From the IMG/VR virus record IMGVR_UViG_2526164667_000029: DNA of 36,097 nucleotides; one strand, written 5' to 3'. Below are positions 1,571-35,766 of the stretch, piece by piece. A model generated the notes under the pieces. The model ran no database searches and had not been told where the DNA came from. It saw only the letters and a program-made list of their open reading frames with translations. Position 1 is the stretch's first letter, and every line of letters begins with the position of its first letter. Position numbers and translations under genes: made by a program. Origin of the DNA: a virus. Taxonomy: Duplodnaviria; Heunggongvirae; Uroviricota; Caudoviricetes.

Positions 1571-1619
1571 TCGTGAAACCCCAGCGTTACAAGACCACCA
1601 TGCCCCCAGCGTTCCATGA

Positions 1620-1931: not shown

Positions 1932-1941
1932 GGTGGTCTCC

Positions 1942-1986: not shown

Positions 1987-2022
1987 CAACAAATAACCAC
2001 AGACTGAACAGGTTATCACATC

Positions 2023-2301: not shown

Positions 2302-2315
2302 CGAGGTGTCATTTT

Positions 2316-2654: not shown

Positions 2655-2664
2655 CAGGTGCGTT

Positions 2665-2943: not shown

Positions 2944-2954
2944 AGGGCGTTGCG

Positions 2955-3197
2955 ATGGGCAAAGAATATAAAACTCTCATTAACAAAGCACTTGAGCGTT
3001 TTTATTTTCGCTTAAGTGCATCAGGTGCTCATGCTGAACGTGCAGCCCGTGACTCATTGACCAGGGCAATCCGGAGTCTGTATGACGTGGCTTTTTACGC
3101 TGATGATCTGGATGCACTTAACGAACTTTCCGAGCTGATCTGTGCCGCAGAATGCGGGGAGCATATTGAACCGTATAAGCTGGGGAATATTGCATGA
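2955..3197 (+). CDS. Hypothetical early protein (80 aa)
   Basis: Six-frame ORF in the early operon. Confidence 0.45.
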   Translation: MGKEYKTLINKALERFYFRLSASGAHAERAARDSLTRAIRSLYDVAFYADDLDALNELSELICAAECGEHIEPYKLGNIA

Positions 3198-7224: not shown

Positions 7225-8184
7225 ATGAAAATTTGTATCGACGACGGCTCCACCAACATCAAGCTGGCATGGACTGAGAACGGCGAACGCCGCAACGCCA
7301 TCAGCCCGAACAGCTTCAAGTCGGAATGGTCTGCGCCGTTCGGTGGCACGCAGCCCGCGAACTACATGCTTGATGGCGTGCGCTATGGTTTTGATCCGGT
7401 CAGCGATCGCTTTGTCCAGACGACCGACACGCAATACCAATACAGCGATGTGAATGTCATTGCCATTCATCACGCGCTGGTCAAATCAGGCATCACACCA
7501 CAGGAGGTGGATGTGGTTGTCACCCTGCCACTGAGCGAGTATTTCGACACAAACGCACAGCCGGACATAGCCAACATCAACCGCAAAAAAGCGAACGTTA
7601 TGCGCCCGGTGGAGTACCAGAACGGCGAAGCATTCACTATCCGTAACGTGCGGGTTATGCCTGAATCCATTCCGGCTGGCTTTAAGGCACTGGCTGACAT
7701 GAGTCCGTTTGAATCCCTGCTGATTGTGGATTTGGGCGGAACCACGCTGGATGTGGCAAAGGTTCAGGGGCAACTGGCAGGTATCAGCCAGGTGTTTTGC
7801 GATCCACACGTAGGCGTTTCTCTGATGGCCGATGCCGTACTGGCGGTGATGGCCACTAACGGTATGCGCACCAGTCACCACATCGCCAATACCATTATCG
7901 AACATCGCCATGATGAAGCCTGGCTGCGCCAGCACATCCACAATGACGCGCATTACGCCAGCCTGATGGCGGTTATTCGTGAAAAGGAAGAAACACTGAA
8001 ACAACGCGTGATCCGCGCGCTGGCGGTTTTTTCGGGTTACGGGCGGGTGATGGTTGTCGGTGGAGGGGCGGAGATTGTGGCACCCGCTATCCGCGAAGCC
8101 TGCGGAGTTAATGCGACTTTCATCGCGGACGGGGTGCCACAGTTTGCTCTGGTTAATGGGCTGTACGCAATGGACAAGGAGTAA
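7225..8184 (+). CDS. parM: ParM actin-like segregation ATPase (type II partition)
   Basis: N-terminus MKICIDDGSTNIKLAW plus ISPNSFK, YSDVNVIAIHHAL and C-terminal LVNGLYAM closely parallel plasmid R1 ParM (remembered MLVFIDDGSTNIKLQW...). Confidence 0.85.
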   Translation: MKICIDDGSTNIKLAWTENGERRNAISPNSFKSEWSAPFGGTQPANYMLDGVRYGFDPVSDRFVQTTDTQYQYSDVNVIAIHHALVKSGITPQEVDVVVTLPLSEYFDTNAQPDIANINRKKANVMRPVEYQNGEAFTIRNVRVMPESIPAGFKALADMSPFESLLIVDLGGTTLDVAKVQGQLAGISQVFCDPHVGVSLMADAVLAVMATNGMRTSHHIANTIIEHRHDEAWLRQHIHNDAHYASLMAVIREKEETLKQRVIRALAVFSGYGRVMVVGGGAEIVAPAIREACGVNATFIADGVPQFALVNGLYAMDKE

Positions 8185-11737: not shown

Positions 11738-11891
11738 TGCTCCCCCTGAGTAATTACAGGAAGATTACCCGCGCGCGAAACCGTTCTCCTTAACCCCCTG
11801 TTCTGGCCGTTTTCTTACAACAAAAGCCCTTTGTATCAGCCTGTTACGCTTTGCCATCATGACTGAAGAACCAGTCAGAGGGGCAAAAACT

Positions 11892-16565: not shown

Positions 16566-16716
16566 CCAACCCACATGGGGAAACCTCGGAATATGGGGCG
16601 ACCGCCTTCTGGATGCACTGGAAACCTGTAACGCGGATAAACGGGCCATTGAATTACTGGAACAGCGCAGGCTGCAACGACTGAACAACGAGGACAACAA
16701 CCATGCTGAAAACTGA
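16426..16716 (+). CDS. lysC: o-spanin lipoprotein (LysC/Rz1-like)
   Basis: Lipobox LLTGC in MNAPTLCLTLVLLTGCAG; Pro-rich; starts inside lysB in another frame and extends beyond it, as in P2 lysB/lysC. Confidence 0.7.
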   Translation: MNAPTLCLTLVLLTGCAGTQNAPRPAPSVRLIPQTLTMPVTPPPFPDQPTWGNLGIWGDRLLDALETCNADKRAIELLEQRRLQRLNNEDNNHAEN

Positions 16717-20148: not shown

Positions 20149-22281
20149 ATGAGTACCACAACACGAAAATTTAAAACCATTATCACTGATACTGGTGCCA
20201 AAAAATTAGCTCAGGCAGCCGCGCCAGATGGTAATCCTGTCCGCCTGACTCACATGGCCGTGGGCGACGGTGGCGGCACGTTGCCCACACCAGACAGTAA
20301 GCAGACCCGTCTGGTGCATGAGGTGTGGCGACATACTGTTAATCGCGTCATCCTGGACGCAACACATCAGAACCGCATTATTGCGGAGCTGGTTATTCCT
20401 CCTGAAACGGGAGGATTCTGGATCCGGGAAATTGGTGTGTTTGATGAGCACGGCGATTTAATCGCGGTGGGCAATACTGCCGAAAGTTACAAGCCAGCCG
20501 TTGCCGAAGGGTCCGGACGTGCACAAACATTTCGCACCATTCTGACAGTATCCAGCACTGCCACCGTGGCGCTTACCGTGGATAACACCATGGTTATGGC
20601 CACAGTGGATTACGTGGATAACAAACTGAAAGAGCATGAACAGTCACGACGTCACCCGGATGCCTCGCTGACCGCAAAAGGCTTTGTTCAACTCAGTAGC
20701 GCCACTAACAGCGATTCTGAAACGCTGGCTGCAACGCCGAAAGCGGTTAAGGTCGCGTATGATCTTGCTAACGGAAAATATACAGCGCAGGATGCCACAA
20801 CAGCGCGAAAAGGCCTTGTCCAGCTTAGTAGTGCAACCAACAGTACATCTGAAACGCTGGCGGCAACATCAAATGCAGTAAAAGCTGCCTATGACAATGC
20901 TGAAAAACGTCTGCAGAAAGCTAAGAATGGTGAGGATATCTCTGACAAAGACACCTTTACGAAAAATATCGGTGCCTGCCGTGCATATAGTGCAGAGCTG
21001 AATATTGGTGGAGATAGTGAAGCATGGACAACTGCGCAGTTGATTTTTTGGCTAGAGAGTCAGGGGGCATTTAACCATCCTTACTGGATGTGCAAAGGCT
21101 CATGGGCTTATGCAAGTAATAAGGTCATTACAGATACAGGTTGCGGAAATATTTGTCTTGCAGGTGCTGTTGTGGAAGTTATTGGCACCCGCGGCGCAAT
21201 GACCATACGCATTACCACACCGAGTACATCCAGCGGTGAAGGCATCCCTAATGCTCAATTTACTTATATTAATCATGGTGATGCTTATGCTCCTGGCTGG
21301 CGAAGGGACTATAACTCCAGGAATAAGCCAACAGCATCAGAGATCGGGGCGTTACCGTCAGATGGGACAGCAGTATCGTCAGTTAATCTGGCTTCAAAAG
21401 GTCGGCTGACCGCCCTGACAGATAATATGCAGGGGGCCACAGGTCTGGAGTTATACGAGGCGTATAACAACGGATATCCAACAACGTATGGAAATATCAT
21501 TCACCTGAAAGGGATGACAGCCGTTGGCGAAGGTGAGTTACTCATCGGCTGGAGTGGTACAAGCGGTGCTCATGCTCCGGCATTTATTCGTTCACGACGG
21601 GATACGATCGACGCAAACTGGTCGCCGTGGGCGCAGCTTTACACCTCGGCTCATCCTCCTGCAGAGTTTTATCCAGTCGGTGCACCAATCCCGTGGCCAT
21701 CAGATACCGTTCCGTCTGGTTATGCCCTGATGCAGGGGCAGACTTTTGACAAATCTGCATACCCGAAACTTGCAGCCGCTTATCCGTCAGGCGTGATCCC
21801 TGATATGCGTGGCTGGACGATTAAGGGCAAACCTGCCAGTGGTCGGGCCGTATTGTCTCAGGAACAGGACGGCATAAAATCGCACACCCACAGCGCCAGC
21901 GCATCCAGTACGGATTTGGGGACGAAAACCACATCGTCGTTTGATTACGGTACTAAAACGACCAGTTCATTTGATTACGGCACAAAAACCACAAATAGCG
22001 CAGGAGCTCATTCACACAATATACCTGTTGGTCACACTGGCGCGGGGAATGGTGTATCAGCCGGTTATAACGCTGCGTTAGGTACTGGTACCACGTCGAG
22101 CGCAGGAGAGCATGCTCACAATGTATATATCGGTGCCCATAACCACACTATCGGCATTGGTGCTCATGCCCATTCTGTCATTATTGGTCCCCACGGACAC
22201 ACCATCACCGTTAATGCTACGGGGAACGCAGAAAACACCGTAAAAAACATCGCATTTAACTATATTGTGAGGCTTGCATAA
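20149..22281 (+). CDS. H: Tail fiber protein (gpH-like) with a mosaic C-terminal receptor-binding region
   Basis: N-terminal about 270 aa nearly collinear with remembered P2 gpH, including the duplicated [19 protein letters not shown] motif; C-terminus carries [10 protein letters not shown] x3 and multiple HxH motifs. Confidence 0.9.
21918..21998 (+). repeat. Tandem ~30-bp coding repeats inside H ([10 protein letters not shown] x3)
   Basis: Near-identical consecutive units ending in ttgattacgg. Confidence 0.6.
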
Positions 22282-22859
22282 TGACATTCAGAATGAGTGA
22301 ACAATCACGGACCATAAAAATTTATAATCTACTGACCGGAACCAATGAGTTTATTGGTGAAGGTGATGCATACATTCCACCTCATACAGGTCTGCCTGCA
22401 AACAGTACCGATATTGCCCCGCCAGATATTCCGGCTGGCTTCGTGGCCGTTTTCAACAGTGATGAGGCATCGTGGCATCTCGTTGAAGACCATCGGGGTA
22501 AAACGGTTTATGACGTGGCATCAGGGGACTCGTTATTTATTTCTGAACTCGGTCCGTTACCGGAAAATGTTACCTGGTTGTCGCCGTATGGAGAGTATCA
22601 GAAGTGGAACGGCACATCCTGGGTGAAAGATGCAGAAGCAGACAAACTATTTCGGATAAGGGAGGCGGAAGAAACAAAAAACAGCCTGATGCAGGTAGCC
22701 AGTGAGCATATTGCACCACTTCAGGATGCTATAGATTTAGATATTGCGACGGAGGAAGAGACATCGTTACTGGCTGCATGGAAGACATATCGAGTATTGT
22801 TGCATCGTGTTGATACAACAGTAGCAGCAGATATTGAGTGGCCAGTCGCCCCACAATAA
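22281..22859 (+). CDS. G: Tail fiber assembly chaperone (gpG/Tfa-like)
   Basis: 192 aa directly after H, start overlapping the H stop. Confidence 0.8.
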
Positions 22860-22864
22860 AAAGA

Positions 22865-22895
22865 AAAAGCCATCGATAGAAATATCGATGGCTTT
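22865..22895. terminator. Bidirectional intrinsic terminator between convergent G and the acetyltransferase gene
   Basis: Inverted repeat aaagccatcgata-gaaa-tatcgatggcttt with A/T runs on both sides. Confidence 0.6.
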
Positions 22896-22902
22896 ATGTA
22901 CT

Positions 22903-23508
22903 CTATTTATACAATACAGCACCGCTCTTTTTAGTTATATATGTGCAGTTCGATGGTATATCTTTATTTATAAAAGACATTGCACCTATTTTTACATTAT
23001 CCCCAATTTTACGGGATAATCCAATGATGCAACAATTAGCTCCGATATCAACGTTGCTACCAATTTTTACTCTTGAACCAGGTATGTCACCATCTATCTG
23101 TCCAATGGTCGTATTCTGTCGTAACACCAGATTTTCACCAGCATCAACAGCAAAATGAACAACAATTCCAGCATGATGGGGAATTGTTAACCCTTTTCCA
23201 ATATTTGCGCCCAATCCAATTTCACAACCAAATTTGTTAATTATTTTACTGTTTAACTTTTTGGCTGCTTTCTTATGTAATTTATTACCATTAATATACA
23301 TTTCGTTAGCCAACCGCCACCAGAAAAGGAAATTCCGGTTACGCTGTTTTTTCTCTCTTAAAAGCCTCCAGATATCCATACGTTTCCGCCGAATTACTTC
23401 ATATTTCCAGAAGTTTTTTAAATTAGTAGAGTTCCCAAATAAAACAAAGTGAATTGCCATTAAGTAAGACAGCACGATAATCTCCTTAATTATTATTTCA
23501 GACGACAC
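22903..23508 (-). CDS. Hexapeptide-repeat (left-handed beta-helix) acetyltransferase, CysE/WcaB-like moron
   Basis: Hexapeptide pattern IGKGLTIPHHAGIVVHFAVDAGENLVLRQNTTIGQ...IGSNVDIGANCCIIG...IGDNVKIGAMSFI; strongly AT-rich compared with flanking phage genes. Confidence 0.75.
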   Translation of the reverse strand: MSSEIIIKEIIVLSYLMAIHFVLFGNSTNLKNFWKYEVIRRKRMDIWRLLREKKQRNRNFLFWWRLANEMYINGNKLHKKAAKKLNSKIINKFGCEIGLGANIGKGLTIPHHAGIVVHFAVDAGENLVLRQNTTIGQIDGDIPGSRVKIGSNVDIGANCCIIGLSRKIGDNVKIGAMSFINKDIPSNCTYITKKSGAVLYK

Positions 23509-23631
23509 ATATTATAAGGTTAAGAGATTATAAAATCCTGTTGTTTGTTATTCAAAAACAATTTTCTGAGAAGGACATACAACAGCAAGTCGCCAGTCAC
23601 CTTCATCAGGAAATTGGCGACATACGTTAAA

Positions 23632-24126
23632 TCAGAGCAGCCCCTTAACTGAGCTGGTCGCGCTATTAAGGGATGATGTCACCTTATCTTTGAAGCCGGA
23701 CAACATATCGCTGAACGATGAGGATTGCAGGCGCTCCCGCAAATCCTCATCACAGCGTTCAAGAGTCAGTGAAAATTCTATCTTTTTCGCCTTACCGTAG
23801 CGATCAAACTCGGAACGGGTCGTATTCGTTCCGGTCAGGACATACATGCCGTAAATCTGCCCGACGCCATCAATCAAAGGCCAGGGTCGTCCTGTATACG
23901 CCTGCGTGGTCAGCAGCGACAGCGACACTTCGCCACCTGTAATTTCAGGATAAAGCACACCAGAAAGAACGATGCGATCATCACCTGCACCGATATACTG
24001 CCAGCTTGCTGAACGGTTAACGCGTTCATTTTTCACATGCCGCCAGCTTTTGTTTTGCTGTAACTGCTGATGCGGCAGCGTGCGCAGCTCAAAAACAAAC
24101 ATGCCGTAGATCATCATCATGGCCAT
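23632..24126 (-). CDS. U: Tail protein (P2 gpU-like)
   Basis: 164 aa immediately downstream of the tape measure gene on the minus strand. Confidence 0.7.
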   Translation of the reverse strand: MAMMMIYGMFVFELRTLPHQQLQQNKSWRHVKNERVNRSASWQYIGAGDDRIVLSGVLYPEITGGEVSLSLLTTQAYTGRPWPLIDGVGQIYGMYVLTGTNTTRSEFDRYGKAKKIEFSLTLERCDEDLRERLQSSSFSDMLSGFKDKVTSSLNSATSSVKGLL

Positions 24127-24132
24127 GACTCC

Positions 24133-26976
24133 TCAATCTTTATCGTAAAAACTGCCACGCCCGGCACGGGCGCGCCGTTCCATTTCTGCCCTGACCATTT
24201 CACCGACCAGTTTCGCCAGTTCGCGGGGATTCTGCGTAACAACGTTATGCAGATGAACATGAATTTCACCACCAAATTCGGAGGCAACAGGCTCCCGGTT
24301 ACGGGAAGTTACAGGAACTGATGCCACTGGAGATCGTATAGCCTCCGCCACCGGGCGGGAGCTGGCCGCAACAACAGTGACCAGCGCCGGAGGCAGCGGA
24401 GCCGGGACCACGGGTGTGATATTAATTGCGGGGGCAGGCTTACTGACCTGCGCAATCTTCCGCTCCTGCCACTCCCCACGAACAGCAAGTGCCCGGGGCA
24501 GGTTTTTAAAGACAATATCGCCGGGGCCAATGCGTTTTTTCGTCTCCTCAACCAGCTTACCTGTGTTATCAGCAATTTTGCTGAGTCTGCGCAGCGTACC
24601 GGTATTGCTGTCTGTGAGCGGTTTATTGTCTTTGGGGTTATCACCTCCGGTGCCATTGCCATTTTCCACAGGCTTCGGCGGATTGATTTTCGCCAGGTCC
24701 CCCTGAAGCAAGGCAACCTTGTCCTGAAGAATGGCCGCACGCTGTGCGTCTTCGATTTTCTTGCGCGCCCTTTCCGCTTCATCCGGAAGCACACCAAGCT
24801 TTTCAAGTATCCACGCCAGCGTATCCAGCAACATTTTTGCAGGTGTCAGAACAAGTTGTAACGCACCGCCAAGAACGTTACCGAATATCTCGCCAGCACT
24901 GGTACATTTATCCAGAGTTTCCTTGCTGGACTCCATCGGTGACAGCAGCGATTTAAACCAGTTAAACACCTGGCTGATCCCACTCCCGATTGCGTCAAAA
25001 ACAGGACTAAACCGTTCAAAGGTTTCGCGCAACGGGGTCAGCCTTTCCATAATCCCGCTGAACACCCCGGCAAAAAATGCCCTGATGGGATCCCAGTATT
25101 TCCAGATAAGAACGGCAGCTCCGGCAAGCGCAGCCACGATAAGACCAACCGGACTGAACAACGCCCCGATAGCGCCTCCCAGCAAAGAAACGGAACCCGT
25201 CACCATTCCCCATAGTGCTGGCAGAACCCTGACAGCATTCATTGATCCGGTCAGGAGGGAAAAACCAAGACGCAGTTTTGCCAGCGGGCCAGCAAGCACA
25301 CCAATAGCCAGCGACAACGAGCCAACCGTTGCAGTCATTGCCAGCAGTGCACCGCCTGCAATCAGTAGCTGGCGCGTCAGTGCGGGATGGGCCTGCGCCA
25401 GCGCCGTCACCTTTGATACCACACGCGTGAGCCACTGCGTGACAGAACGCAGCGGACCGTCAATCAGATCTGCAATGCGGATGCGCAACCCTTCCCATGC
25501 ACTGCTGAGTGATTTCAGATCGCCGTCAAGGTTGTTGGCCATAACCTTTGCCGTGCGTTCAGCCTCACCGCGCGCACCTTCAAGTTCTTTTCTCAGTTTG
25601 GGTAAGGAGCCGTCACCTGCCGCATCAACGAGGGCCATAAATGATGTGAAAGCCTCTTCTCCGGCAATGTCCTTAAAGAACGATACCCGGTCAACTTCCC
25701 CGTATTTGCGGGTAGCTTTATAAAGGTCAGCCAGCACATCCTCCATCGGACGCATTTTGCCCCCGGCATCCGAGACAGACACGCCAAGCTCTTTCAGCGC
25801 CTCTGCTGCCGCCTTTGGCGGTGATGCCAGACGAGCCAGGCTGGCACGCATTGCCGTCCCGGCATCACTCCCTCTGATACCCATATTCGCCAGCACGCCC
25901 GCCATCGCTGCGGCCTGCTCCAGCGATATTCCCAGCTTGCCCGCCACCGGACCTGCATATTTCATGGTTTCGCCCAGTGCGCGAAGGTCAGTGTTGGTAC
26001 GGGTAAATGCTGCGGTGAGCGTGTCGCCAACCCGGTCCATCTGGTCAGCAGAAAGGCCGAACTGCGTCAGGATATTTGAGCCAATATCCGCCGTCTCGCC
26101 GAGATCCATGCCGCCAGCCGTTGCCATGCTCAGCACGCCCGGAAGCGCAGCCTGAATGGCCTGCGGAGTGAAGCCAGCCATTGCAAGAAATGCCTGCCCA
26201 CTGGCGGCATCGCCTGCGGTGAACTGCGTTTCAGAGCCAAGTTTTAACGCCTGCTCACGCAGCGCCTTAAACTGCGGGCTGTTTTTGTCGATTCGCGTCA
26301 GTGCCTGAACGCGGGACATCTCTTTGCCGAACCCGATCGCAGGCTGTAAAAAACGCCCGGCAGCATAGCCGCCAGCCGCTGCCGCACCAATTGCCAGCGC
26401 ACCACCTGTTTTCAGTTTTCCCGCGGTTTCCTGCACGCGCGAATACCGCTCACGCGCCCGCGTTACACGCGCAAGCGCCTGCCGTTCGCGTTCAAGCTGG
26501 TTGTTGTACTGTTCGGTGCGTCTGATGGCCTGCTGGATGGTGTTATCGCTGCCTGTCAGGGAAATGCCGTGGCGTTTCAGCTCTCCGCCAAGCTCCCGCA
26601 TTTTCTGAATTTCCCGTGTGCGCGATTCATTCAGGCGTTCAAGCCGGGTGCTTAACTGCTGCATCAGCTTTTGTTGTTTTTCGCTGAGCACTGTACCCGT
26701 GCGTTGTAACTGATTAAGGGCGTTAAGCTGGCGTCGTGCTTTCACGATACCCGCATCCGCTTTACTGACAGCGTCGCGGGCGCGCTCAAATGAACGCGCC
26801 TGACGCTCGAGATTTTTGATCGCCCCCTGCGTTCGCTGGATGGAGTCACCAAACTGCCCCATCAGGCGGCGGGCGTTTTCGGCAGGCCGGGTCAGCCTGT
26901 CAACGGCGCTGAAAGCGACCCGGATATCAAGAGTCTTCATTGTCTGCATTCCCGCTGCGAAGTGCCGCCCGCTCAC
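24133..26976 (-). CDS. T: Tail tape measure protein (gpT-like)
   Basis: 947 aa, Ala/Gly-rich with coiled-coil-like N-terminal part and hydrophobic stretches; exact start uncertain. Confidence 0.85.
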   Translation of the reverse strand: MSGRHFAAGMQTMKTLDIRVAFSAVDRLTRPAENARRLMGQFGDSIQRTQGAIKNLERQARSFERARDAVSKADAGIVKARRQLNALNQLQRTGTVLSEKQQKLMQQLSTRLERLNESRTREIQKMRELGGELKRHGISLTGSDNTIQQAIRRTEQYNNQLERERQALARVTRARERYSRVQETAGKLKTGGALAIGAAAAGGYAAGRFLQPAIGFGKEMSRVQALTRIDKNSPQFKALREQALKLGSETQFTAGDAASGQAFLAMAGFTPQAIQAALPGVLSMATAGGMDLGETADIGSNILTQFGLSADQMDRVGDTLTAAFTRTNTDLRALGETMKYAGPVAGKLGISLEQAAAMAGVLANMGIRGSDAGTAMRASLARLASPPKAAAEALKELGVSVSDAGGKMRPMEDVLADLYKATRKYGEVDRVSFFKDIAGEEAFTSFMALVDAAGDGSLPKLRKELEGARGEAERTAKVMANNLDGDLKSLSSAWEGLRIRIADLIDGPLRSVTQWLTRVVSKVTALAQAHPALTRQLLIAGGALLAMTATVGSLSLAIGVLAGPLAKLRLGFSLLTGSMNAVRVLPALWGMVTGSVSLLGGAIGALFSPVGLIVAALAGAAVLIWKYWDPIRAFFAGVFSGIMERLTPLRETFERFSPVFDAIGSGISQVFNWFKSLLSPMESSKETLDKCTSAGEIFGNVLGGALQLVLTPAKMLLDTLAWILEKLGVLPDEAERARKKIEDAQRAAILQDKVALLQGDLAKINPPKPVENGNGTGGDNPKDNKPLTDSNTGTLRRLSKIADNTGKLVEETKKRIGPGDIVFKNLPRALAVRGEWQERKIAQVSKPAPAINITPVVPAPLPPALVTVVAASSRPVAEAIRSPVASVPVTSRNREPVASEFGGEIHVHLHNVVTQNPRELAKLVGEMVRAEMERRARAGRGSFYDKD

Positions 26977-27163
26977 GCCAGCTAACCACTTCGCCGGGCG
27001 TCATCATGAAGATTTCGGCGGGCGACCAGTTAAAAATAACGGCAATATCTGCCACAAAGTCTTCTATGTGCTCAAAGCACACAACCGTGATCAGGCTTCC
27101 GTCGCCTGTTCGTTCTTCCCGCCAGAGTCCGCACCGCTCAAAAAATTTACGGCAACCACACAT
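26927..27163 (-). CDS. E' frame: -1 frameshift extension of the tail chaperone (gpE+E')
   Basis: ORF in the -1 frame relative to E, overlapping its 3' end; slippery heptamer TTTTTTG on the minus strand at about 27139-27145. Confidence 0.55.
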   Translation of the reverse strand: MCGCRKFFERCGLWREERTGDGSLITVVCFEHIEDFVADIAVIFNWSPAEIFMMTPGEVVSWRERAALRSGNADNEDS

Positions 27164-27456
27164 AACTGAATAAAGTCACGGGATGCCATTTTTTTGATCG
27201 TCACTTCATCCAGTCGCGGTGATGTCACGCGTGACAGCAGCGTAAACATGGATTCCGCTTTCAGATTCAGCACATCAGACAGCGACAAATCTCGCAGAGA
27301 TCCAGCCTGCTCAATAGCTCCGGTGATCTCCACATACGTGATTTTTTCGCCGCCTCGCTCAATTGGTTGGGTAAGTTTTACGCCACGCTCACTGGTTTCT
27401 TTCACAGTGTCAGCAACGACCGTGTTTTCGGTATCGATGTTTTTCGTCTCTTTCAT
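27091..27456 (-). CDS. E: Tail assembly chaperone (P2 gpE-like)
   Basis: 121 aa between tail tube and tape measure genes. Confidence 0.7.
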   Translation of the reverse strand: MKETKNIDTENTVVADTVKETSERGVKLTQPIERGGEKITYVEITGAIEQAGSLRDLSLSDVLNLKAESMFTLLSRVTSPRLDEVTIKKMASRDFIQLCVVAVNFLSGADSGGKNEQATEA

Positions 27457-27510
27457 CAGGAAACTCCTTTCAGTCAGAGGCGACGCACTGCGCCGCCTGC
27501 ATATTACTTA

Positions 27511-28023
27511 TCAGCCAAGCCCGAGCGCGGAACGGATGCGATCGGGCACAATGTCCTTGCCGTCCTTCCGGTAAATGAAGTTCAGCAGGTCAATCTCCCA
27601 CAACGGGCGATCGTTAACACTCAGCTTGTAGTAGGTGTTTTTAATGGCGTAAGTGTGTGATGTGGCTTCGCCCTGTTTGGCTTCCCCCATATCAATTTCC
27701 GTCACACGTCCGCGCATTTCGACTTCATACAGGTCGCTTTCTGCATCGGTGTAATATTCACCCGCAAAACGCAGCAGCGTGCCGTCAATCGTGCCGCCAT
27801 ACTTAAGGAACAGCTCACGAACTGCGCCCCCCATGACAAAGCTCGCATCAAGCGCGGAGTCGTCCAGACCGAGATCAATACTTACCGCACCCATCATGCC
27901 ACCACCCCGGTAGCTGTCGGTTTTGCGCGTCAGCTTAGGCAGAGTGACGGACGTCACCTTACCCACTTCGTTTTCACCATCCACAAACAGCGTAAAAAAG
28001 CGAAGATGTTTTGGCACAGCCAT
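27511..28023 (-). CDS. FII: Tail tube protein (P2 gpFII-like)
   Basis: 170 aa (P2 gpFII about 172 aa), directly downstream of the sheath gene. Confidence 0.85.
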   Translation of the reverse strand: MAVPKHLRFFTLFVDGENEVGKVTSVTLPKLTRKTDSYRGGGMMGAVSIDLGLDDSALDASFVMGGAVRELFLKYGGTIDGTLLRFAGEYYTDAESDLYEVEMRGRVTEIDMGEAKQGEATSHTYAIKNTYYKLSVNDRPLWEIDLLNFIYRKDGKDIVPDRIRSALGLG

Positions 28024-29207
28024 CAGGCACCTCCCAGCACCGCAAATGCGGGACCAAAGAATTCATCAGTAAACGTCTGGTAAAGCTCCATGTCTTCCAG
28101 TGGCGGAACGGGCGTATATTTGTAGCGAATACGCACACGCCCCTGACGTAAATCCGTGGTGCCGTTATCCACCACGTCATACCAGCACGACGCCCCAATC
28201 AGTTTCCCGGCAGTAACCAGTGAATCCAGTTTTGCCCTGATGGCACTGATAACATCTTTCACGTTCGCAGGCGTCAGTGGACTGTCGATGGTTTCAAACT
28301 GCGCTTCCGCAATTGAATCAGCCAGCACCTGTGCGGTTCGGGTATACACCTCAAAGATGTAGGCGTTCGTTTCCGGTGTGCGGTTGCCCCAGAAGCGGAA
28401 CCCGTTGCGACGAATAATGGTCGTGATTTCTTTGTTGTTGAGGCTGTTGGCATCACTGTCTTCGGCCTGCAACGACCAGAACACATGCCTCGACATCCCC
28501 AGCACATTCTTAACCGGAACGTTGGAGAGTGATTTGTGCCATCCCTGCTCATGGTCAATGTACGCACGAAGGCCGCACGCATAGGCAGGCGCGGGGAACG
28601 TTTCGTTTTTGCCACTTTTCGGGTTGTAGGCGATGAAGTCCGGCCATAAGAGCATCACCTCACGTTCGTTGAATTTCTGGCGGTAGGTAATCGCATCAGC
28701 CATCGTGTCACAGCCATGACATGAGGCATACACAAACGCGCGCAGTTTACCCGCAATCACGCACAGGGATTTTGTCACCGCCTCCGTATCCAGCTCCGGC
28801 GCGGCCAGAATACGCGGACGGTATCCGATGCTTTCATCCTGCTCTGCAACAAGCAGCGCATACATCCCCGTATAGCTGCCGTCAGATTCAGAACCACCGA
28901 TAACCAGTTGATCCTGCGTCTTTCCGTCTTCTTCTTTGTGTTCAGCCACGCGAACGACGATCACCTTTGTGCTCACCTGGTCTGCAATGGCCTTAAGCGC
29001 ACGATAAAGCGTCCCCGTTGTCCCGCATTTTCCCAGCACGTCATTGACGCGGGTCAGCAGTGTGGGCTTGTTCAGCGGGAACAGCTCCGCGTCCGCATCA
29101 TCCGCCGTTGCCACGATACCGATAACACTGGAATCAACATCATTAATCGCTGTTACCAGGTCGGTACTTTCCGTAACACGGGCACCATGAAAACGAGTTT
29201 CACTCAT
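28023..29207 (-). CDS. FI: Tail sheath protein (P2 gpFI-like)
   Basis: 394 aa; blocks LRAFVYASCHG, MLLWPDF, GFRFWGNRT, NYTRTAQVLADS and YKYTPVPPLE match remembered P2 gpFI. Confidence 0.9.
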   Translation of the reverse strand: MSETRFHGARVTESTDLVTAINDVDSSVIGIVATADDADAELFPLNKPTLLTRVNDVLGKCGTTGTLYRALKAIADQVSTKVIVVRVAEHKEEDGKTQDQLVIGGSESDGSYTGMYALLVAEQDESIGYRPRILAAPELDTEAVTKSLCVIAGKLRAFVYASCHGCDTMADAITYRQKFNEREVMLLWPDFIAYNPKSGKNETFPAPAYACGLRAYIDHEQGWHKSLSNVPVKNVLGMSRHVFWSLQAEDSDANSLNNKEITTIIRRNGFRFWGNRTPETNAYIFEVYTRTAQVLADSIAEAQFETIDSPLTPANVKDVISAIRAKLDSLVTAGKLIGASCWYDVVDNGTTDLRQGRVRIRYKYTPVPPLEDMELYQTFTDEFFGPAFAVLGGA

Positions 29208-29631
29208 AGCTTCAGCCCCTTGTATCCGTTAAATGATTCGGCAACAATCATCACCCACCACGCGCGTAATCTCACTCCTGCGCCGTTCTCCCGCCACGGC
29301 GACAACAAAAAGCAGTAACCCCCTCCGCACGCACATGCGACCATGCCGCACAGGGAGGGAACAGATGACCGACACCACCATGCAATTGCTCAGTCAGGGC
29401 ACAGACCCCGTGAAAATGCCGGATTTTGATATTCTCGCGGAGGGTAAAACGCTGTCAGGCGTGGCAGAGCGCCTGATGAGCCTGTCACTGACCGACAACC
29501 GGGGATTTGAAGCGGACCAGCTCACCATCACGCTGGATGATGCGGATGGTCAGTTGCAGCTACCGCCACGGGGCGCGCGCCTGACGGTTCTCATTGGCTG
29601 GAAAGGAGAACCGCTGACAGAAAAAGGCACT

Positions 29632-30852
29632 TGTAGATTCAATCTGTCAATGCAACACCCCTTTCAATTATCTCTTTCGGTGTTTTGAACTTCAGTGTCT
29701 TTCTCGGTCTGTTGTTTAGCTGAGCAGCAACCAGATCTAGTTCATGTTGAGTATATTGGGCAAGACATGTCTTTTTAGGAAAGTACTGCCGAATTAGCCC
29801 ATTTGTGTTCTCATTTGTTCCCCGCTGCCAAGGACTCTGAGGATCGCAGAAGTAAACTTTAACGCCGGTGCTGACAGTAAATTCTAGATGTCTGGCCAGT
29901 TCCATTCCTCTGTCCCATGTCAGTGATTTTCTGAGTTCTGACGGTAAACTCAGGAATTTGTCGGTAAGAGCCTGATTTACTGAGACAGAATCTTTGCCCC
30001 TGAGTCTGAGGATGATCGTATAACGTGATTTTCGGTCTACAAGTGTGGCTATATGAGAGTTTTTTGTACCTGAGACTAAATCGCCCTCCCAATGCCCCAG
30101 AGAGCGTCTGTTATCGATATTTCGGGAACGTTCGTGAATTGGTGTTCCGTTCACTATGTTAATCGTACCTCTTTCGCCTTTGCGGGTATGACGCCTGCCA
30201 TGGCGAAGGCTATGCGACCGTCGCAGATGCTGTATATTCAGGTGGTGTAGCGCTTCACGGCTACGAAAGTACAGCGTTTTATAAATTGTCTCAGGTGATA
30301 TTCGCAGCGTTTTTTGACGTGGTTTTGTTCGCCTTAACCATCCTGATATTTGCTCTGGAGACCATTTCATCTCCAGCTTTTCCAGAACAAGCTTTCGCAA
30401 TGGTAAATTTTGATCCAGTAAGCACGGTTTTGGCCTTTTCGCCATTCTGTTGGCTCGGTTATTAGCATCAACAGCTTTGTAATAGCGTCTGCCCCGATTA
30501 CGCTGAACTTCACGTGAGATCGTCGAAGGACTGCGATTCAGCGCAGTAGCTATCGCACGAATGCTCATTTTGGCTGACAAACCAGCTCGTATCTCCTCGC
30601 GCTCAGACAGTGTCAGGTGAGCTACAGCCCGCTTACGCTCATGGGGTTTTATGCCGCCAGTATCCCTTAACATAGTGAAGATCGTTCCGGGTTTTGAACC
30701 CAGGATATTCGCTATTTCACTGAAGCCTGTTCCGTTCTTCCATAGTTCAAAAACAGAGGCTTTTTCCTCTGCTGTAAATGTTCGTCTCATTCAAAAAACC
30801 TCCGCAACCCCATGTTTTCACATAACTGTTGCGTTGACCAATTGAATCTACA
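29632..30852 (-). mobile_element. IS30 insertion sequence (complete, about 1221 bp)
   Basis: Terminal inverted repeats TGTAGATTCAAT..GTCAA.GCAAC at both ends; 2-bp flanking direct repeat CT; one 383-aa transposase ORF. Confidence 0.9.
29639..30790 (-). CDS. insI: IS30 transposase
   Basis: 383 aa with N-terminal HTH and a DDE-type catalytic core; fills nearly the whole element. Confidence 0.9.
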   Translation of the reverse strand: MRRTFTAEEKASVFELWKNGTGFSEIANILGSKPGTIFTMLRDTGGIKPHERKRAVAHLTLSEREEIRAGLSAKMSIRAIATALNRSPSTISREVQRNRGRRYYKAVDANNRANRMAKRPKPCLLDQNLPLRKLVLEKLEMKWSPEQISGWLRRTKPRQKTLRISPETIYKTLYFRSREALHHLNIQHLRRSHSLRHGRRHTRKGERGTINIVNGTPIHERSRNIDNRRSLGHWEGDLVSGTKNSHIATLVDRKSRYTIILRLRGKDSVSVNQALTDKFLSLPSELRKSLTWDRGMELARHLEFTVSTGVKVYFCDPQSPWQRGTNENTNGLIRQYFPKKTCLAQYTQHELDLVAAQLNNRPRKTLKFKTPKEIIERGVALTD

Positions 30853-31855
30853 CTTACATTGTTGATGAAATCGCTCACGAAGGACCGCCGGACAGGCTGA
30901 CTGTTTCAGCCAGAAGCGCAGATTTTCGGGATGAATTTAACGTTAAACGTGAGGTGTCCTGGCATGATGTGACCGTTGAGCGTGTGGTATCCGCCATCGC
31001 TCATCGGTATGGTCTGAAACCGCAAATCAGCGAAATGCTGATGGATATCGAAATCGACCACGCCGACCAGACCGAAGAAAGCGACATGTCCTTCCTTACG
31101 CGCATGGCGGAAATGCTGGGCGCAATCACCACAGTAAAAAGCGGCAATCTGTTATTCATCATGCCAGGTGGTGGCGTGAACGCACAGGGCCAGCCGTTGC
31201 CCTCGTTCGCCATTACACGCAGCAGCGGCGATCGCCATCAGTTCCGTATTGCTGACCGCGAGGCGTATACGGGGGTACGCGCCTACTGGCTTGATCTTAA
31301 TTACGGGAAAAAGAAAAAAGTCAGCGTGAAACGCCGTAAACCGCCAAAACCCAAAAAGGAGAAAAGCAGCAGCCGTGAAGGTGATTATATGGAAGGCGCG
31401 GAAGGCAATGTGTTTGTGTTACGCAAGACTTATCAGAACGAGCAGGCAGCAAGACGCGCAGCGGCGGCAAAGTGGCAGCAGCTACAACGCGGAGCCGCAG
31501 CGTTCTCCATCACACTGGCACGTGGACGCGCAGAACTCTACCCCGAAATGCATGGCACGGTAACAGGCTTTAAAAGCGAGATTGATAATCAGGACTGGAT
31601 TATTGCGAAAGCCGAGCACACCATTGATAACAGCGGCTTTACCACGCAGCTTGAGCTTGAGGCAAAAATCCCGGAATGGATAGCAGAATGAGACTCTTAA
31701 ATGTATTAGTCCAGACACGTACTAGCGGGCTAAACGGCACAGTCTTATCTGACCATCTGCCCCTAACACAGAGCAGACGGTCCTTGATCTTACCCACTAA
31801 TAATGGACGCGCGACTAATATAATTTATTGCTTTTTATTTATACCTCACTGAGAT

Positions 31856-32491
31856 TTAGCGAGCTAATATATTCAAAGAATTTAACAATTGAGTGTCGAG
31901 TGTTTCAGTTGCAGGAATCGGTAATCCATTCGCAATGCGGTAATTTTTCACAGACAGCCTTGTGGATGGCCCCATTATGCCGTCAATATTTCCGTTATAA
32001 AATCCCCTGTCCAGCAATGCGAACTGAACTCGCATAATCAATCGCTTACGTTTCTCTGCATCAGAAGCAAGCCCATTACTCGTACGGTTAACCTCTGAAG
32101 TTCCAACAGAACTCGTGTTAGTGGTTCTATTATTATCGTTAGAACGAAGTGCACGCACCGAGGAAGAGGACGATGAGGAACTTGCACCTGAACTTGAAGA
32201 ACCAGATGAACGTGGTGAGCTGTATGTTTTTGGATAATAGGGGGTACTTCCACCATAGTATCCACCACCTGATGAGGATCTATGAGAGCTATGGCTCCTA
32301 TGAGAGCTATGGCTTCGATGCCCTGCGATATAAAATGGGACTTCCGTGTTAAGTGGAGCTATCACTAAATCATGCTCATTAAGAGTCATACCAGGTAAAT
32401 CACTCGCTCCTGTAGATGAATCGCTTGCCCATACAGAATTGTTGAGAGCCAAAAATCCCGGAAGTAGAGCAGCAAAATTAAACTTTTTCAT
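31856..32491 (-). CDS. hxsA: His-Xaa-Ser repeat protein (HxsA-like): signal peptide, HxS repeats, Ser-rich linker, peptidoglycan-binding-like C-terminus
   Basis: Signal peptide MKKFNFAALLPGFLALNNSVWA; repeat HRSHSSHRSHSSHRS; Ser-rich tract; C-terminal RVQFALLDRGFYNGNIDGIMGPSTRLSVKNYRIANGLP resembles a PG_binding_1 domain; start overlaps the stop of the upstream rSAM gene (ATGA); ORF track extends to 32569 in the same frame. Confidence 0.7.
   Translation of the reverse strand: MKKFNFAALLPGFLALNNSVWASDSSTGASDLPGMTLNEHDLVIAPLNTEVPFYIAGHRSHSSHRSHSSHRSSSGGGYYGGSTPYYPKTYSSPRSSGSSSSGASSSSSSSSVRALRSNDNNRTTNTSSVGTSEVNRTSNGLASDAEKRKRLIMRVQFALLDRGFYNGNIDGIMGPSTRLSVKNYRIANGLPIPATETLDTQLLNSLNILAR
32276..32320 (-). 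repeat. 18-bp tandem DNA repeats encoding the His-Xaa-Ser repeats of HxsA
   Basis: Plus-strand ctatgagagctatggct repeated about 2.5 times. Confidence 0.6.
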
Positions 32492-33600
32492 AAAATTGGT
32501 CTCGGTGATTGATGAAAACGGCCTTTTGAGGAACTGAAATAGCCAGCACAGGAAGGCTTCTGAGTACATTCATCACATTCTTTTGGATAGTAATTTTTCC
32601 AATCAGAGATCGACTGAACAGCAAGCTCCCTAGCCCTTTCAGGAAGATAACACAAAGGATAATTAAAAATTGTCAGAGGTATGCCTGACCTGTATGCAGC
32701 GTCTATGGCAGAGATTATTTTCTCACTATAACTACTGTGATCAATGAAGATGGTGGACCAGTTTTTTCGTGCCCAACCGATAGGCTCCAACCCCATAAGG
32801 GAAATCTGATTGATGTTGGAGAACACACGGCCAGCGAATTCTACAATATCATCCAATTCGGTATAGTTAGCCAGTGTAGGAATAACTCTAAGTTCGATAT
32901 TAATCCCCAAGTTTCCTGCATTGATTAACCCTTTAACCGTTTCATTAAATGCGCCATCACTCCCTACCAGATGATCATGCACAAGTGGTCTTGATGAGTA
33001 GAGCGGGATACCAAAGGTGATTTTGATCTTTTTGCTTCGCTTTGCCATTTCCTGTGTAAAGTTGATATCAGCAAATTTGCGTCCGTTTGTTAAAACATGT
33101 AAAGCAGTATCTGGTGAATTCTCGATGATAAAATCAATGAAGTGAAGGAAGTCATCCCCATATAGCAAAGGTTCACCACCGCTGACCCCAACAACTCCGT
33201 TCAAGCCAAATGAAGCTATAGCAAGAGCTGATTGGGTAAGTAGCCAGTCATCATTTATTTTCTTTGGTGGCTGCGAACAAAACAGACACAAGTTATTGCA
33301 GCGTTCCGTAACTAAGACAGTATTATGATTGGCTTTGCGTGACAGAATAACGCGTATCATATTGCCATTGTTGATTATCCCAATATCTCCATCTTCAATT
33401 GACTCAAATAATTCAGTGCTAATAACAGAGAAATCAAAGCATGGTGGAATGGCATCATTATTGCCTTCAGCAACTACTAGCAAATTGGGCAAAAAGAATA
33501 AAGGGTTCACTGGTTTTTGTTTGCATAACCGATAGAACCCCGTGGGCACGTTCTCTGTAGAAGCAAAATGAAAGATATCGTTCCTGATAACCTCAGACAT
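32488..33600 (-). CDS. Radical SAM maturase with C-terminal Cys-rich (SPASM/twitch-like) region, HxsB/HxsC-type
   Basis: 370 aa; CxxxCxxC motif CNNLCLFC; GGEP motif VSGGEPLL; C-terminal cysteines in CYLPERARE...CDECTQKPSCAGYF; 8-nt overlap with the upstream gene. Confidence 0.75.
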   Translation of the reverse strand: MSEVIRNDIFHFASTENVPTGFYRLCKQKPVNPLFFLPNLLVVAEGNNDAIPPCFDFSVISTELFESIEDGDIGIINNGNMIRVILSRKANHNTVLVTERCNNLCLFCSQPPKKINDDWLLTQSALAIASFGLNGVVGVSGGEPLLYGDDFLHFIDFIIENSPDTALHVLTNGRKFADINFTQEMAKRSKKIKITFGIPLYSSRPLVHDHLVGSDGAFNETVKGLINAGNLGINIELRVIPTLANYTELDDIVEFAGRVFSNINQISLMGLEPIGWARKNWSTIFIDHSSYSEKIISAIDAAYRSGIPLTIFNYPLCYLPERARELAVQSISDWKNYYPKECDECTQKPSCAGYFSSSKGRFHQSPRPIL

Positions 33601-34981
33601 ATGCCCATCCTTTTAGCATCTCAGCCTTCGAACCACCCTCTGAGATGCAGTTCATCAGATACCTGAACATCCCCTTGTGATATTGACAAAACGTTGAACG
33701 ACTCCTATCACCGACAGGCTCACCCTGTACACTTATGTTCTGGCATGGATCTGAACCACAAAATGGTTGATATGCACATGTATCACAACCTGGCAGAGCA
33801 AAATTGAACGATGAACTCAATACTGCGTTATAGTAAGGACTATCAGAAAATGATAGCGTCTTAACTTCACCCGCACTGAACTCCGTTTCAGGATTCACCT
33901 TCTGCAACATACGGCTCTCATCGCTACCATATACTCGACCGTCATAATTGAAAAGAATACTGTTAAGCACGACTCCACTTGGAGACTTTAAATCCGCATA
34001 ACCACTAAAACCGGGATTGAAGATCCTTTTCAGATGAATGGAGGCCGAATGTTCCACAACCCTTATCCCTTCATTATTAATCTTAAGGATTTCATCTATC
34101 AACGAGGCATAGAAGCTGAAGTATTCGTCCATAGAAAAGGTGAAAGAAGCTTTTTGTGCAAACCCATAGGGACTAACAGGTCGGATAAACATGTCCTTGA
34201 GACCAAGAGACAAGTGAGCCTGAACAATCGATTCAGGACGTTTGATAAGCTCTTTAGTAACTGTAGTAACCGTTGCAACGCGGCCAGCACCTAAAGAGTG
34301 TTTGATAGCCTCTACCCCTGACACTGTTCTACTGTACGCAAGCCCACGACCAAGAATTCGATTACTGTTGTGAACAACTTCCTCACCATCAAGCGACACA
34401 GAGAACGTTATGTTCCGGTCTCTCGACCATTCAATCATATCCTCATTCAAGACGGACAGACTTGATGCCACCACCATCTCAAAATTGGTTCTTCCCAGCG
34501 TTTCAGCACATTGATCATAGATGCTCTGAATTAAATCAAACCGCAAGAGAGGCTCCCCACCCTGTATCTCTATTTTGTAAGGTGGCGTTGATAGTTTTTT
34601 AATAGCCGAAATAATATCGGGGATGAGCTCAGGATTTAGGTCGTAACCTGAGGCATTAACAGAAGCTCTACTAACCTGGCAATACTTGCATGTATGGTCA
34701 CAACGTAATGTGGGTACAATCATGAAAATTGGCCTGACAGCCAGTTCATTCATCAATCGTTTTGCAAAAGCAGAACTTAAAGCATAGGGAGTTATAGCAG
34801 ATGAGCTTTCACTGGTTATGAAAAGCTTACTTTCTAGCACGTTTGATTGCTCCGAACTAATTCGCTCATCAGAAAGATCAATAAGGTCTTGCTCACCAAT
34901 GAAATGATGAAAACCTGCAAGGTTGCTTATAAACACCTGTCCATTAGGCAATCTGTCAAAATTAAATGGCATCAATTCCAT
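33593..34981 (-). CDS. Radical SAM maturase with N-terminal extension and C-terminal Cys-rich region, HxsB/HxsC-type
   Basis: 462 aa; CxxxCxxC motif CDHTCKYC; GGEP motif IQGGEPLL; C-terminal cluster PGCDTCAYQPFCGSDPC; start overlaps the hxsD stop (TAATG). Confidence 0.75.
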   Translation of the reverse strand: MELMPFNFDRLPNGQVFISNLAGFHHFIGEQDLIDLSDERISSEQSNVLESKLFITSESSSAITPYALSSAFAKRLMNELAVRPIFMIVPTLRCDHTCKYCQVSRASVNASGYDLNPELIPDIISAIKKLSTPPYKIEIQGGEPLLRFDLIQSIYDQCAETLGRTNFEMVVASSLSVLNEDMIEWSRDRNITFSVSLDGEEVVHNSNRILGRGLAYSRTVSGVEAIKHSLGAGRVATVTTVTKELIKRPESIVQAHLSLGLKDMFIRPVSPYGFAQKASFTFSMDEYFSFYASLIDEILKINNEGIRVVEHSASIHLKRIFNPGFSGYADLKSPSGVVLNSILFNYDGRVYGSDESRMLQKVNPETEFSAGEVKTLSFSDSPYYNAVLSSSFNFALPGCDTCAYQPFCGSDPCQNISVQGEPVGDRSRSTFCQYHKGMFRYLMNCISEGGSKAEMLKGWAYV

Positions 34982-35295
34982 TATGAAAGCCTCTCATCAA
35001 CACTGCGAAGCACTTTATGGACAATAGAGTCTCTCAACGCCCCTGTTTTATGCTGTAGCTTTTCTCGCAAAGAGTAATCATTAAGCAGCCTATCGAATTC
35101 ATAAAGGAATTTGGGATTATCGTTTTCAAAAGAGATTATCCAGTGGGAAACGTCTTCATGGAGTTTCCATCGAGTAAGCGGAGTCATCCAATATAGACTA
35201 TTGCGTATAACCCATTCAGAATATAGTTCTTTCTCAAACACTCTTTCGCTCATTGCAATTATCTTCCAATACAAATATTCATGATCAGCAACCAC
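34981..35295 (-). CDS. hxsD: HxsD-like small protein (LLNDYxLRE signature)
   Basis: 104 aa containing LLNDYSLRE, the motif that names the TIGRFAMs HxsD family (as I recall it); first gene of the operon. Confidence 0.6.
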   Translation of the reverse strand: MVADHEYLYWKIIAMSERVFEKELYSEWVIRNSLYWMTPLTRWKLHEDVSHWIISFENDNPKFLYEFDRLLNDYSLREKLQHKTGALRDSIVHKVLRSVDERLS

Positions 35296-35505: not shown

Positions 35506-35766
35506 ATGTTCCGTTGTCCACTTTGTGGCGCATCTGCCCGTATCCGCACTAGTCGTCCGGAAAATGATTCAAACACTGTGCGGCAAAAGTATTACCAATG
35601 TAACAACCTAGAATGCGGCGTATGCTTCTCAACACTGGAAGCTTTCCATAAATTCACATCGAAACACGCCTCCGGCGCTCACTCTTCAGAAGGTATCCCG
35701 TGGCATGAACTGCCAGCTTCACACAAAGGAAACAATCAGATGAGTTTGCCCTTACCTCAAAATTAA
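35506..35766 (+). CDS. ogr: Ogr/Delta-family zinc-finger late transcription activator
   Basis: MFRCPLCGASARIRTSR...YYQCNNLECG with a Cys4 arrangement, as in P2 Ogr (remembered MFHCPLCQHAAHARTSR...); ggagg RBS upstream. Confidence 0.85.
   Translation: MFRCPLCGASARIRTSRPENDSNTVRQKYYQCNNLECGVCFSTLEAFHKFTSKHASGAHSSEGIPWHELPASHKGNNQMSLPLPQN

Follow-up and report, generated by a model that had tools for sequence, protein, structure and literature searches.

Two described phages frame the locus analyzed here. The first, P2 (Peduovirus P2, NC_001895), has the gene order Q P O N M L X ... V W J I H G, FI FII E E' T U D ogr. In its record H, G, FI, FII, E, T, U, D and ogr share one strand, as the initial annotation of the present DNA had stated, and FI-FII-E-T-U-D form one rightward operon in which U overlaps D. 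The divergent P/O pair of P2 has a single activator site, with starts mapped at 3016 and 3127, 55.5 bp on each side of the dyad centre. The second, P88 (Xuanwuvirus P88, NC_026014), is inducible and plaque-forming, with a contractile tail in electron microscopy. It carries U-T-E'-E-FII-FI on the minus strand and, across an FI-D spacer of 157 bp, D and ogr on the plus strand. This layout is also found in the further close relatives phiSM, 520873, P884B11, PhiR44_2, 500465-2, 503458 and Chuche; phiSM, from Citrobacter rodentium, has been described as a fully functional phage.

The DNA analyzed is a viral stretch of 36,097 nucleotides (IMG/VR record IMGVR_UViG_2526164667_000029), referred to below as the window. 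Its gene set is shared with P2; its order and strands are those of P88, with which it is collinear at 97–98% nucleotide identity. P88-collinear blocks cover ∼70% of the window, or ∼80% if an IS30 element and an hxs island are set aside. Relative to P88, the window adds the IS30 within D, the 3.8-kb hxsABCD island between D and ogr, and a 547-bp deletion in the terminase/portal genes, and its integrase and immunity region differs. The window is thus a defective P88-like (Xuanwuvirus-type) prophage of the P2 family, and its gene order is native to that group. Gene identities and strands were called with PHROGs, NCBIfam and PGAP names from a near-identical genome, as follows.

22281–22859, plus strand: G, tail fibre assembly (phrog_105, E = 6.6e-96; PGAP "tail fiber assembly protein")
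23632–24126, minus strand: U, tail protein (phrog_76, E = 7e-75; 46% identity with P2 U)
24133–26940, minus strand: T, tape measure protein (phrog_28, E = 7e-217; start according to PGAP and the P88 annotation)
27091–27456, minus strand: E (phrog_103; PGAP "GpE family" CDS)
down to 26927, minus strand: E', the −1 frameshift extension of E (read from the sequence)
27511–28023, minus strand: FII, tail tube protein (NCBIfam TIGR01611 tail_tube, 122.8 bits against a cut-off of 102.75)
28023–29207, minus strand: FI, tail sheath protein (phrog_23, E = 4.7e-125; 45% identity with P2 FI)
29208–29364, no strand: divergent FI-D spacer, 157 bp
35506–35766, plus strand: ogr, zinc-finger late activator of the Ogr/Delta type (Pfam PF04606, Ogr_Delta, 52.3 bits against a cut-off of 26.3)

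G is the final gene of the rightward V-to-G series of tail and baseplate genes, and U is the last gene of a leftward F operon. The P2-type structural set is present (sheath, tube, E/E' chaperones, tape measure, U and an interrupted D, by PHROGs, NCBIfam and tblastn against P2). The window also shares with P2 an Ogr-type activator, a divergent P/O pair, and the E/E' slippery heptamer, T-TTT-TTG, which was read intact at 27145–27139 and is annotated at the equivalent place in P2.

These calls confirm the minus strand for FI, FII, E/E', T and U (23632–29207) and the plus strand for H, G, D and ogr, with FI and D diverging over 157 bp. Set against the P2 record, the block is indeed reversed and D stands apart from the FI-led operon. 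The initial annotation had read this as an inversion of a kind that implied an unusual or recent rearrangement, or a misassembly, and that part is contradicted by the identical layout of P88 and its relatives. Intact P2-like phages natively have this orientation, as seen in P88, in phiSM, in all 23 clade loci of the species scan described below and in three ICTV genera. The orientation is therefore ordinary: it is the long-established, regular gene order of an entire viable P2-like clade.

The extent of that clade was assessed by scanning one genome per species; five further loci, in which D fell outside the fetched sequence, were left out. The P88 order was found in 23/23 species-level loci with an FI at least 58% identical, and the P2 order in 52/52 scorable loci with an FI at most 51% identical. 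The order in the window (G rightward; U-T-E-FII-FI leftward; D and ogr rightward) is that of P88 and of all 23 clade loci, and a neighbour-joining tree groups the P88-type sheaths in a single clade. The layout is carried by reference genomes of the ICTV genera Xuanwuvirus, Reipivirus and Novemvirus. In Reipivirus (Klebsiella phage ST16-OXA48phi5.4) and Novemvirus (Enterobacter phage phiT5282H), which have only ∼68–70% nucleotide identity to the window over part of FI, the block is inverted in the same way, and D and ogr point away from FI. Of 5426 complete E. coli genomes, 1358, about a quarter, have a contiguous FI-D junction. A synthetic U-D junction representing the P2 order gave no match in the 1411 E. 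coli genomes with these genes. We found no description of the inverted block in the literature searched, which covered P88, Xuanwuvirus, "Global genomic diversity of P2-like viruses" and a paper on Burkholderia P2-like phages; the layout is already visible in annotated reference genomes.

Apart from the orientation of the block, the window does have abnormal features, namely a D split by IS30 and an apparent 547-bp deletion, at 10442/10443, that truncates the terminase and portal genes (P/Q). Together these would be expected to prevent assembly, and no plaque-forming phage is predicted. The features to the right of the spacer are listed here.

29365–29631, plus strand: 5' part of D, 89 codons, ended by IS30 (phrog_52, phrog_4456; PGAP pseudogene "missing C-terminus")
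29632–30852, minus strand: IS30, 1221 bp (transposase 29639–30790; NCBIfam transpos_IS30, 276 bits against a cut-off of 80)
30855–31691, plus strand: 3' part of D (phrog_52, E = 4.7e-106; 96.7% identity with P88 D)

The transposase has the Pfam domains HTH_38 and rve, the element has terminal inverted repeats (TGTAGATTCAAT.../...ATTGAATCTACA), and a 2-bp target duplication (CT) borders it at 29630–29631 and 30853–30854. Removal of IS30 and one CT in silico restores an intact D of 367 amino acids. D and ogr, ∼50 bp apart in most relatives, are separated by 3.8 kb in the window due to the hxs island, which is an HxsABCD defence cassette by NCBIfam; PADLOC 2.0 did not recognise a system in this island and returned weak viperin-like matches only. 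The initial annotation had noted neither the split of D nor the distance from D to ogr.

Cargo is also found at the left border, where G and U converge.

22866–22895, no strand: hairpin with a perfect 13-bp stem between convergent G and the acetyltransferase gene, terminator-like, with the T-run on the minus strand
22903–23508, minus strand: hexapeptide-repeat (serine/sugar O-)acetyltransferase, a moron (Pfam Hexapep; PGAP "serine acetyltransferase")

The acetyltransferase gene, whose start codon is placed at 23475 by PGAP, has a low GC content (0.385) and matches an NCBIfam EpsC/CysE-like model below the cut-off. A promoter scan predicts a sigma-70-like promoter of its own at 23555–23527. The gene is missing from P88, with homology to P88 restarting at 23626; P88 instead has an invertible tail fibre segment with an invertase. 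The junction of Reipivirus between tail fibre genes and U differs again, in carrying a DUF262 gene pair. The convergent G-U junction is a cargo slot, equivalent to the Z/fun position of P2. The G-acetyltransferase-U junction of the window is contiguous in 495 E. coli genomes.

How the clade came by its order, and how D is transcribed, are best considered together. The joint explanation that we hold with considerable confidence has three parts: the order is native to P88-type phages, it arose by an ancestral inversion in place, and a dyad in the FI-D spacer would serve both directions. The F-operon promoter and the FI-FII-E/E'-T-U segment would have been inverted as a unit in the ancestor of a large enterobacterial clade of the Peduoviridae, leaving G and U convergent and FI and D divergent. 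The inverted order has become fixed, and living phages function with it. Amino-acid identity to P2 (tblastn) is even across modules, at 26–52%, both inside the block (FI 45%, FII 44%, E 32%, T 33%, U 46%) and outside it (Q 48%, P 45%, N 42%, D 48%), which fits an inversion in place.

The inversion would also have moved the activator site of the F operon beside D, where it may now be used in both directions. The relevant elements of the spacer are these.

29252–29247, minus strand: −10-like hexamer GATGAT
29287–29304, no strand: Ogr-type dyad TCT-N12-ACA
29336–29344, plus strand: extended −10, TGc-GACCAT
29353–29359, plus strand: Shine-Dalgarno sequence GGGAGGG of D (sequence read and alignment)

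The dyad lies 34 bp from a −10-like hexamer on either strand. This layout is that of P2 pP/pO (34/18/34), and the starts predicted from the sequence would be 111 bp apart, as in P2. The half-site in the window is imperfect, TCT rather than the TGT of pP/pO. The dyad was recognised only through the alignment of the clade and through a shared motif, TCT-N12-ACAAC, that is also found in the window's own P-O spacer (11802–11821). The exact pattern TGT-N12-ACA is absent from both the FI-D and the P-O spacer of the window, and the one-mismatch pattern gives 167 matches in the window, where ∼171 are expected; this count is at chance level, showing no enrichment, and is thus uninformative alone. In the alignment, the dyad and both −10-like hexamers are kept, with a spacing of 34/18/34(35) bp, in all 22 distinct clade spacers, which are related sequences and so do not count as independent events, and the spacer sequence otherwise varies. 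At the dyad position, the canonical TGT-N12-ACA aligns in three of the most divergent members. A hexamer on the far side of the dyad was found in 20/20 P88-type loci versus 3/14 P2-type loci; note that this control is small (n = 14) because the automated search for dyad and hexamer failed in 38 P2-type loci, where FI starts are imprecise or dyads divergent.

The FI-D spacer is thus probably a bidirectional late promoter, a prediction in which we infer the starts, the dependence on Ogr and the bidirectionality from the spacer sequence. The F promoter of P2, by comparison, is annotated as one-directional. Under the control of the single dyad at 29287–29304, leftward transcription of the FI-to-U operon would begin near 29240 and rightward transcription of D near 29351, giving D a short predicted leader of ∼14 nt. 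In most relatives the rightward transcript would continue into ogr ∼50 bp further on, which would not apply to this window. We lean slightly toward the view that the inversion placed the F-operon dyad beside an orphaned D and that this symmetric site was co-opted as a second bidirectional late promoter. A late promoter was also sought for the V operon of the window, and none was located; S and V overlap, and no convincing dyad is seen in the gap preceding R (16566–16702).

Among other accounts of the orientation, one would reverse the polarity, with the P88-type order ancestral and the P2 order a derived inversion. In a midpoint-rooted tree the P88-type clade is sister to all sampled P2-type sheaths, as that account would allow, but sister groups under midpoint rooting mean that the sheath tree does not fix polarity. 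In contractile-tail phages further removed, such as Mu, phiCTX and HP1, the sheath, tube, chaperones, tape measure and D homologue are on one strand, which would speak against a P88-type ancestor, as does the P2 order of the Burkholderia relatives in the species scan. We regard this polarity as unlikely and retain the inversion of a P2-type order. The sheath-to-U module might instead derive from a different phage lineage, having been inserted in the opposite orientation in place of the original. P2-like phages are mosaic, and the left border is prone to recombination, with a cassette of the H C-terminus, G and acetyltransferase common to unrelated phages. However, the block and its flanking proteins are about equally far from P2, and D identities follow FI identities across the clade; a replacement is accordingly judged improbable, and the ancestral inversion in place is preferred.

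A block that is switched by a site-specific DNA invertase of the Gin/Cin type is a far weaker proposal. It draws on the DNA invertase gene that P88 and several relatives have between the tail fibre genes and U. The window is without an invertase, and the P88 enzyme adjoins an alternative, oppositely oriented pair of tail fibre and assembly genes, its likely substrate. A single orientation was found across 1411 E. coli genomes and 23 species. There are also no inverted-repeat crossover sites around the block: as the initial annotation had noted of long inverted repeats at the two junctions, none pairs 22860–23631 with 29208–29364 in an inverted-repeat search. The 8-mer that it reported as shared by the junctions, CGTTAAAT, is present at 23625 and 29227, although on the same strand. 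It is thus a direct repeat that cannot mediate inversion, and its four copies in the window versus 1.16 expected are a marginal excess. Such a switch is very improbable.

The same lack of inverted repeats at the borders weighs against a recent inversion in this prophage or strain that separated D from the F operon. The reversal relative to P2 and the visible decay of the prophage, with IS30 in D and the deletion in P/Q, would favour it, but identical junctions are found in viable phages, in the 1358 complete E. coli genomes and in relatives from other genera with a sheath only 58% identical. No relative more than 95% identical has the P2 order among the 1411 genomes, and a recent event can practically be discounted. 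An assembly artefact at 23510–23630 and/or 29208–29364, which has nothing in its favour except the departure from P2, is dismissed with near certainty, as both junctions are contiguous in independently finished genomes (FI-D in 1358, G-acetyltransferase-U in 495) and the block junctions are contiguous also in records of phage genomes that were sequenced separately.

As an anomaly, the orientation of this block has little weight: it is how a very common prophage lineage is normally laid out. Its consequence is that P2 is unsafe as the sole synteny template for P2-like prophages, since about a quarter of complete E. coli genomes have the other layout. The lineage has cargo slots at the G-U junction and in the D-ogr gap, occupied here by an acetyltransferase and an HXS defence system, and they are useful in mining prophages for accessory genes. 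The conserved FI-D spacer leads to a testable prediction, namely a second bidirectional late promoter with a shared activator site. If true, this would be a natural case of operon splitting rescued through the reuse of a symmetric activator site, and in the many relatives with D and ogr ∼50 bp apart it would place ogr behind an Ogr-activated promoter, with possible positive feedback.

Genes in the window were mapped with PHROGs, Pfam and NCBIfam searches, by which it is a P2-family prophage carrying the following genes:

22281-22859, plus strand: G (tail fibre assembly)
22903-23508, minus strand: hexapeptide acetyltransferase
23632-24126, minus strand: U
24133-26940, minus strand: T (tape measure)
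27091-27456, minus strand: E
27511-28023, minus strand: FII (tail tube)
28023-29207, minus strand: FI (tail sheath)
starting at 29365, plus strand: D
35506-35766, plus strand: Ogr/Delta gene (ogr, late activator)

The slippery heptamer T-TTT-TTG of E/E′ is intact (27145-27139), with the -1 frame extending to 26927, and 157 bp separate FI from D. In the annotated P2 record, a single strand encodes H, G, FI, FII, E, E′, T, U, D and ogr, and U overlaps D. The P2 gene order given in the initial annotation agrees with this record, as does its claim that the sheath-to-U block runs opposite to that of P2.

The same layout is annotated in Escherichia phage P88, where U, T, E′, E, FII and FI lie on the minus strand and, after a 157-bp gap, D lies on the plus strand. 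In a search of phage records, the region was 94.5-99% identical to P88 and seven other distinct phages. Direct comparison showed the window and P88 to be collinear, with orientation unchanged throughout. P88 is mitomycin C-inducible and plaque-forming, with a measured burst size and a contractile tail seen by electron microscopy (PMC5285337), and a related phage of Citrobacter rodentium, phiSM, has been described as fully functional (PMC6456863). Because intact P2-like relatives natively have this orientation, the rearrangement is not peculiar to this prophage; the block is inverted relative to P2 as an evolutionary comparison, but is neither unusual nor recent. The nearest complete genome is that of E. 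coli 7_33_46A, in which the prophage sits between btuC and ihfA. Note also that ParM/StbA-type actin-like segregation genes occur in the early region (7225-8184 and downstream), as they do in P88, a hint that phages of this lineage may be capable of plasmid-like persistence as prophages.

To survey gene order, one genome per bacterial species was scanned by sheath alignment, yielding 80 loci, and D, U, T, FII, V, W, J, I, H, G and ogr were placed in each by tblastn. All loci with a sheath at least 58% identical to that of the window (23/23) had the P88 order; their hosts were Salmonella, Citrobacter, Edwardsiella, Enterobacter, Kosakonia, Pantoea, Mixta, Erwinia, Klebsiella, Pectobacterium, Symbiopectobacterium and others. 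The P2 order was found in 52 of the 52 D-scorable loci with sheaths at most 51% identical, Burkholderia loci among them; in five more, D lay outside the fetched sequence. P88-type sheaths formed a single clade in a neighbour-joining tree, and reference genomes of the ICTV genera Reipivirus and Novemvirus also have the P88 order. Among 5426 complete E. coli genomes, the FI-D junction was contiguous in 1358; the G-acetyltransferase-U junction was contiguous in 495 complete E. coli genomes. A synthetic P2-like junction of the U end with the D start was found in none of 1411 E. coli genomes carrying these genes. No inverted repeats joining the two block borders were found, and the 8-mer common to both junctions is a direct repeat in marginal excess. 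A recent inversion is thus excluded by the uniform clade and the junction counts, misassembly by the contiguous junctions in complete genomes, and a switchable segment by the single orientation observed. The P88-type order is ordinary, and reference annotations already show it.

How the order arose was considered from protein identities to P2. These are 45% (FI), 44% (FII), 32% (E), 33% (T) and 46% (U) within the block, and 48% (Q), 45% (P), 42% (N) and 48% (D) outside it. Because both sets are about equally distant from P2, the values fit an ancestral inversion of the resident block better than the import of a module from elsewhere. The sheath tree leaves polarity unfixed, since midpoint rooting makes the P88 and P2 types sister groups. 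In Mu, phiCTX and HP1 the sheath-to-D genes are collinear, and on this basis the P2 order was taken as probably ancestral.

The real abnormalities of the window are an IS30 in D and a deletion in P/Q, which together, judging from sequence, make this a defective prophage. The IS30 (1221 bp, 29632-30852, transposase on the minus strand) splits the essential tail gene D after codon 89 and is flanked by a 2-bp CT target duplication; removing it in silico with one CT restores an intact 367-aa D. Eleven complete E. coli genomes of different lineages share this insertion, among them ETEC H10407 and O157:H7 493/89. At 10442|10443, 547 bp of P88 and the best-matching E. coli prophages are missing, taking the 3′ end of terminase gene P and the 5′ end of portal gene Q; no microhomology was found at the junction. 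Since all of the best 12 E. coli matches listed retain these 547 bp, their absence here may be particular to the strain or may come from faulty assembly of the source.

The window ceases to match P88 at about 21300, inside H, and matches it again from 23626, which is 6 bp beyond the stop codon of U. Between these points, a cassette at 21673-23508 comprises the C-terminal part of H together with G and the acetyltransferase and shares 93-94% identity with unrelated E. coli phages, e.g. vB_EcoM-Ro157c2YLVW and JL22, whereas P88 has at the corresponding site a DNA invertase and an alternative fibre segment that can be inverted. An Rfam IS009 (RF02111) match (22624-22822, plus strand) scores 173 bits, above the gathering score of 117; it falls wholly within the 3′ half of G and probably reflects a prophage origin of the Rfam family rather than a separate RNA gene. 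A second insertion, of low GC and absent from P88, sits exactly between D and ogr:

31856-35295, minus strand: complete hxsD-hxsB-hxsC-hxsA cassette (all four proteins above NCBIfam cut-offs)

It encodes a His-Xaa-Ser repeat protein and two radical SAM maturases. HXS has been published as an anti-phage defence that acts by blocking the entry of DNA, in a paper reporting that most hxs operons lie outside predicted prophages (PMC13128918); this one is a prophage-borne copy in a slot not among the classic P2 hotspots. Since most relatives have a G-U gap of about 100-160 bp and a D-ogr gap of about 50 bp, with ogr beyond D, both positions act as cargo slots. In the Reipivirus Klebsiella phage ST16-OXA48phi5.4, a DUF262-domain gene and a second gene occupy the slot between tail fibre gene and U (1205-3108). 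These may be a defence pair, which, if true, would support the convergent junction as a cargo hotspot.

FI-D spacers from 22 distinct members of the P88-order clade were aligned. Three elements are conserved amid variable sequence:

29252-29247, minus strand (FI strand): -10-like hexamer GATGAT (GATTAT in most relatives)
29287-29304: 18-bp dyad T(C/G)T-N12-ACA (canonical TGT-N12-ACA in three of the most divergent members)
29336-29344, plus strand (D strand): TGn-extended -10-like hexamer TGc-GACCAT

The spacing between hexamer and dyad is 34 bp in 22/22 spacers on the FI side, and 34 bp in 20 and 35 bp in two on the D side, counts drawn from related rather than independent sequences. The window's dyad has one mismatch to the canonical form, and the one-mismatch pattern by itself is not enriched in the window. 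In a control comparison, 20/20 P88-type loci had the far-side hexamer, versus 3/14 P2-type loci with a recognisable F promoter. In the P2 record, the divergent promoters pP and pO (mapped starts 3016 and 3127) share one annotated activator-binding site. The sequence there has an 18-bp dyad with a hexamer 34 bp away on either side, and each start lies 55.5 bp from the dyad centre. The FI-D spacer has this geometry, and starts are predicted near 29240 (minus) and 29351 (plus), 111 bp apart as in P2. The divergent P-O spacer of the window (11738-11891) shares with the FI-D spacer the extended motif GTTCT-N12-ACAACAAAAGC, here at 11802-11821. Each strand has a -10-like hexamer, at distances of 34 and 35 bp, which matches the layout of P2's mapped pP/pO.

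The predicted bidirectional FI/D promoter with a shared activator is the sole mildly new point. Detached from the F operon, D would need a promoter of its own. Spacer conservation, the P2-like geometry and the far-side hexamer control suggest that, most likely, the inversion brought the F-operon activator site beside D, and that this symmetric site would now drive both FI-to-U and D.
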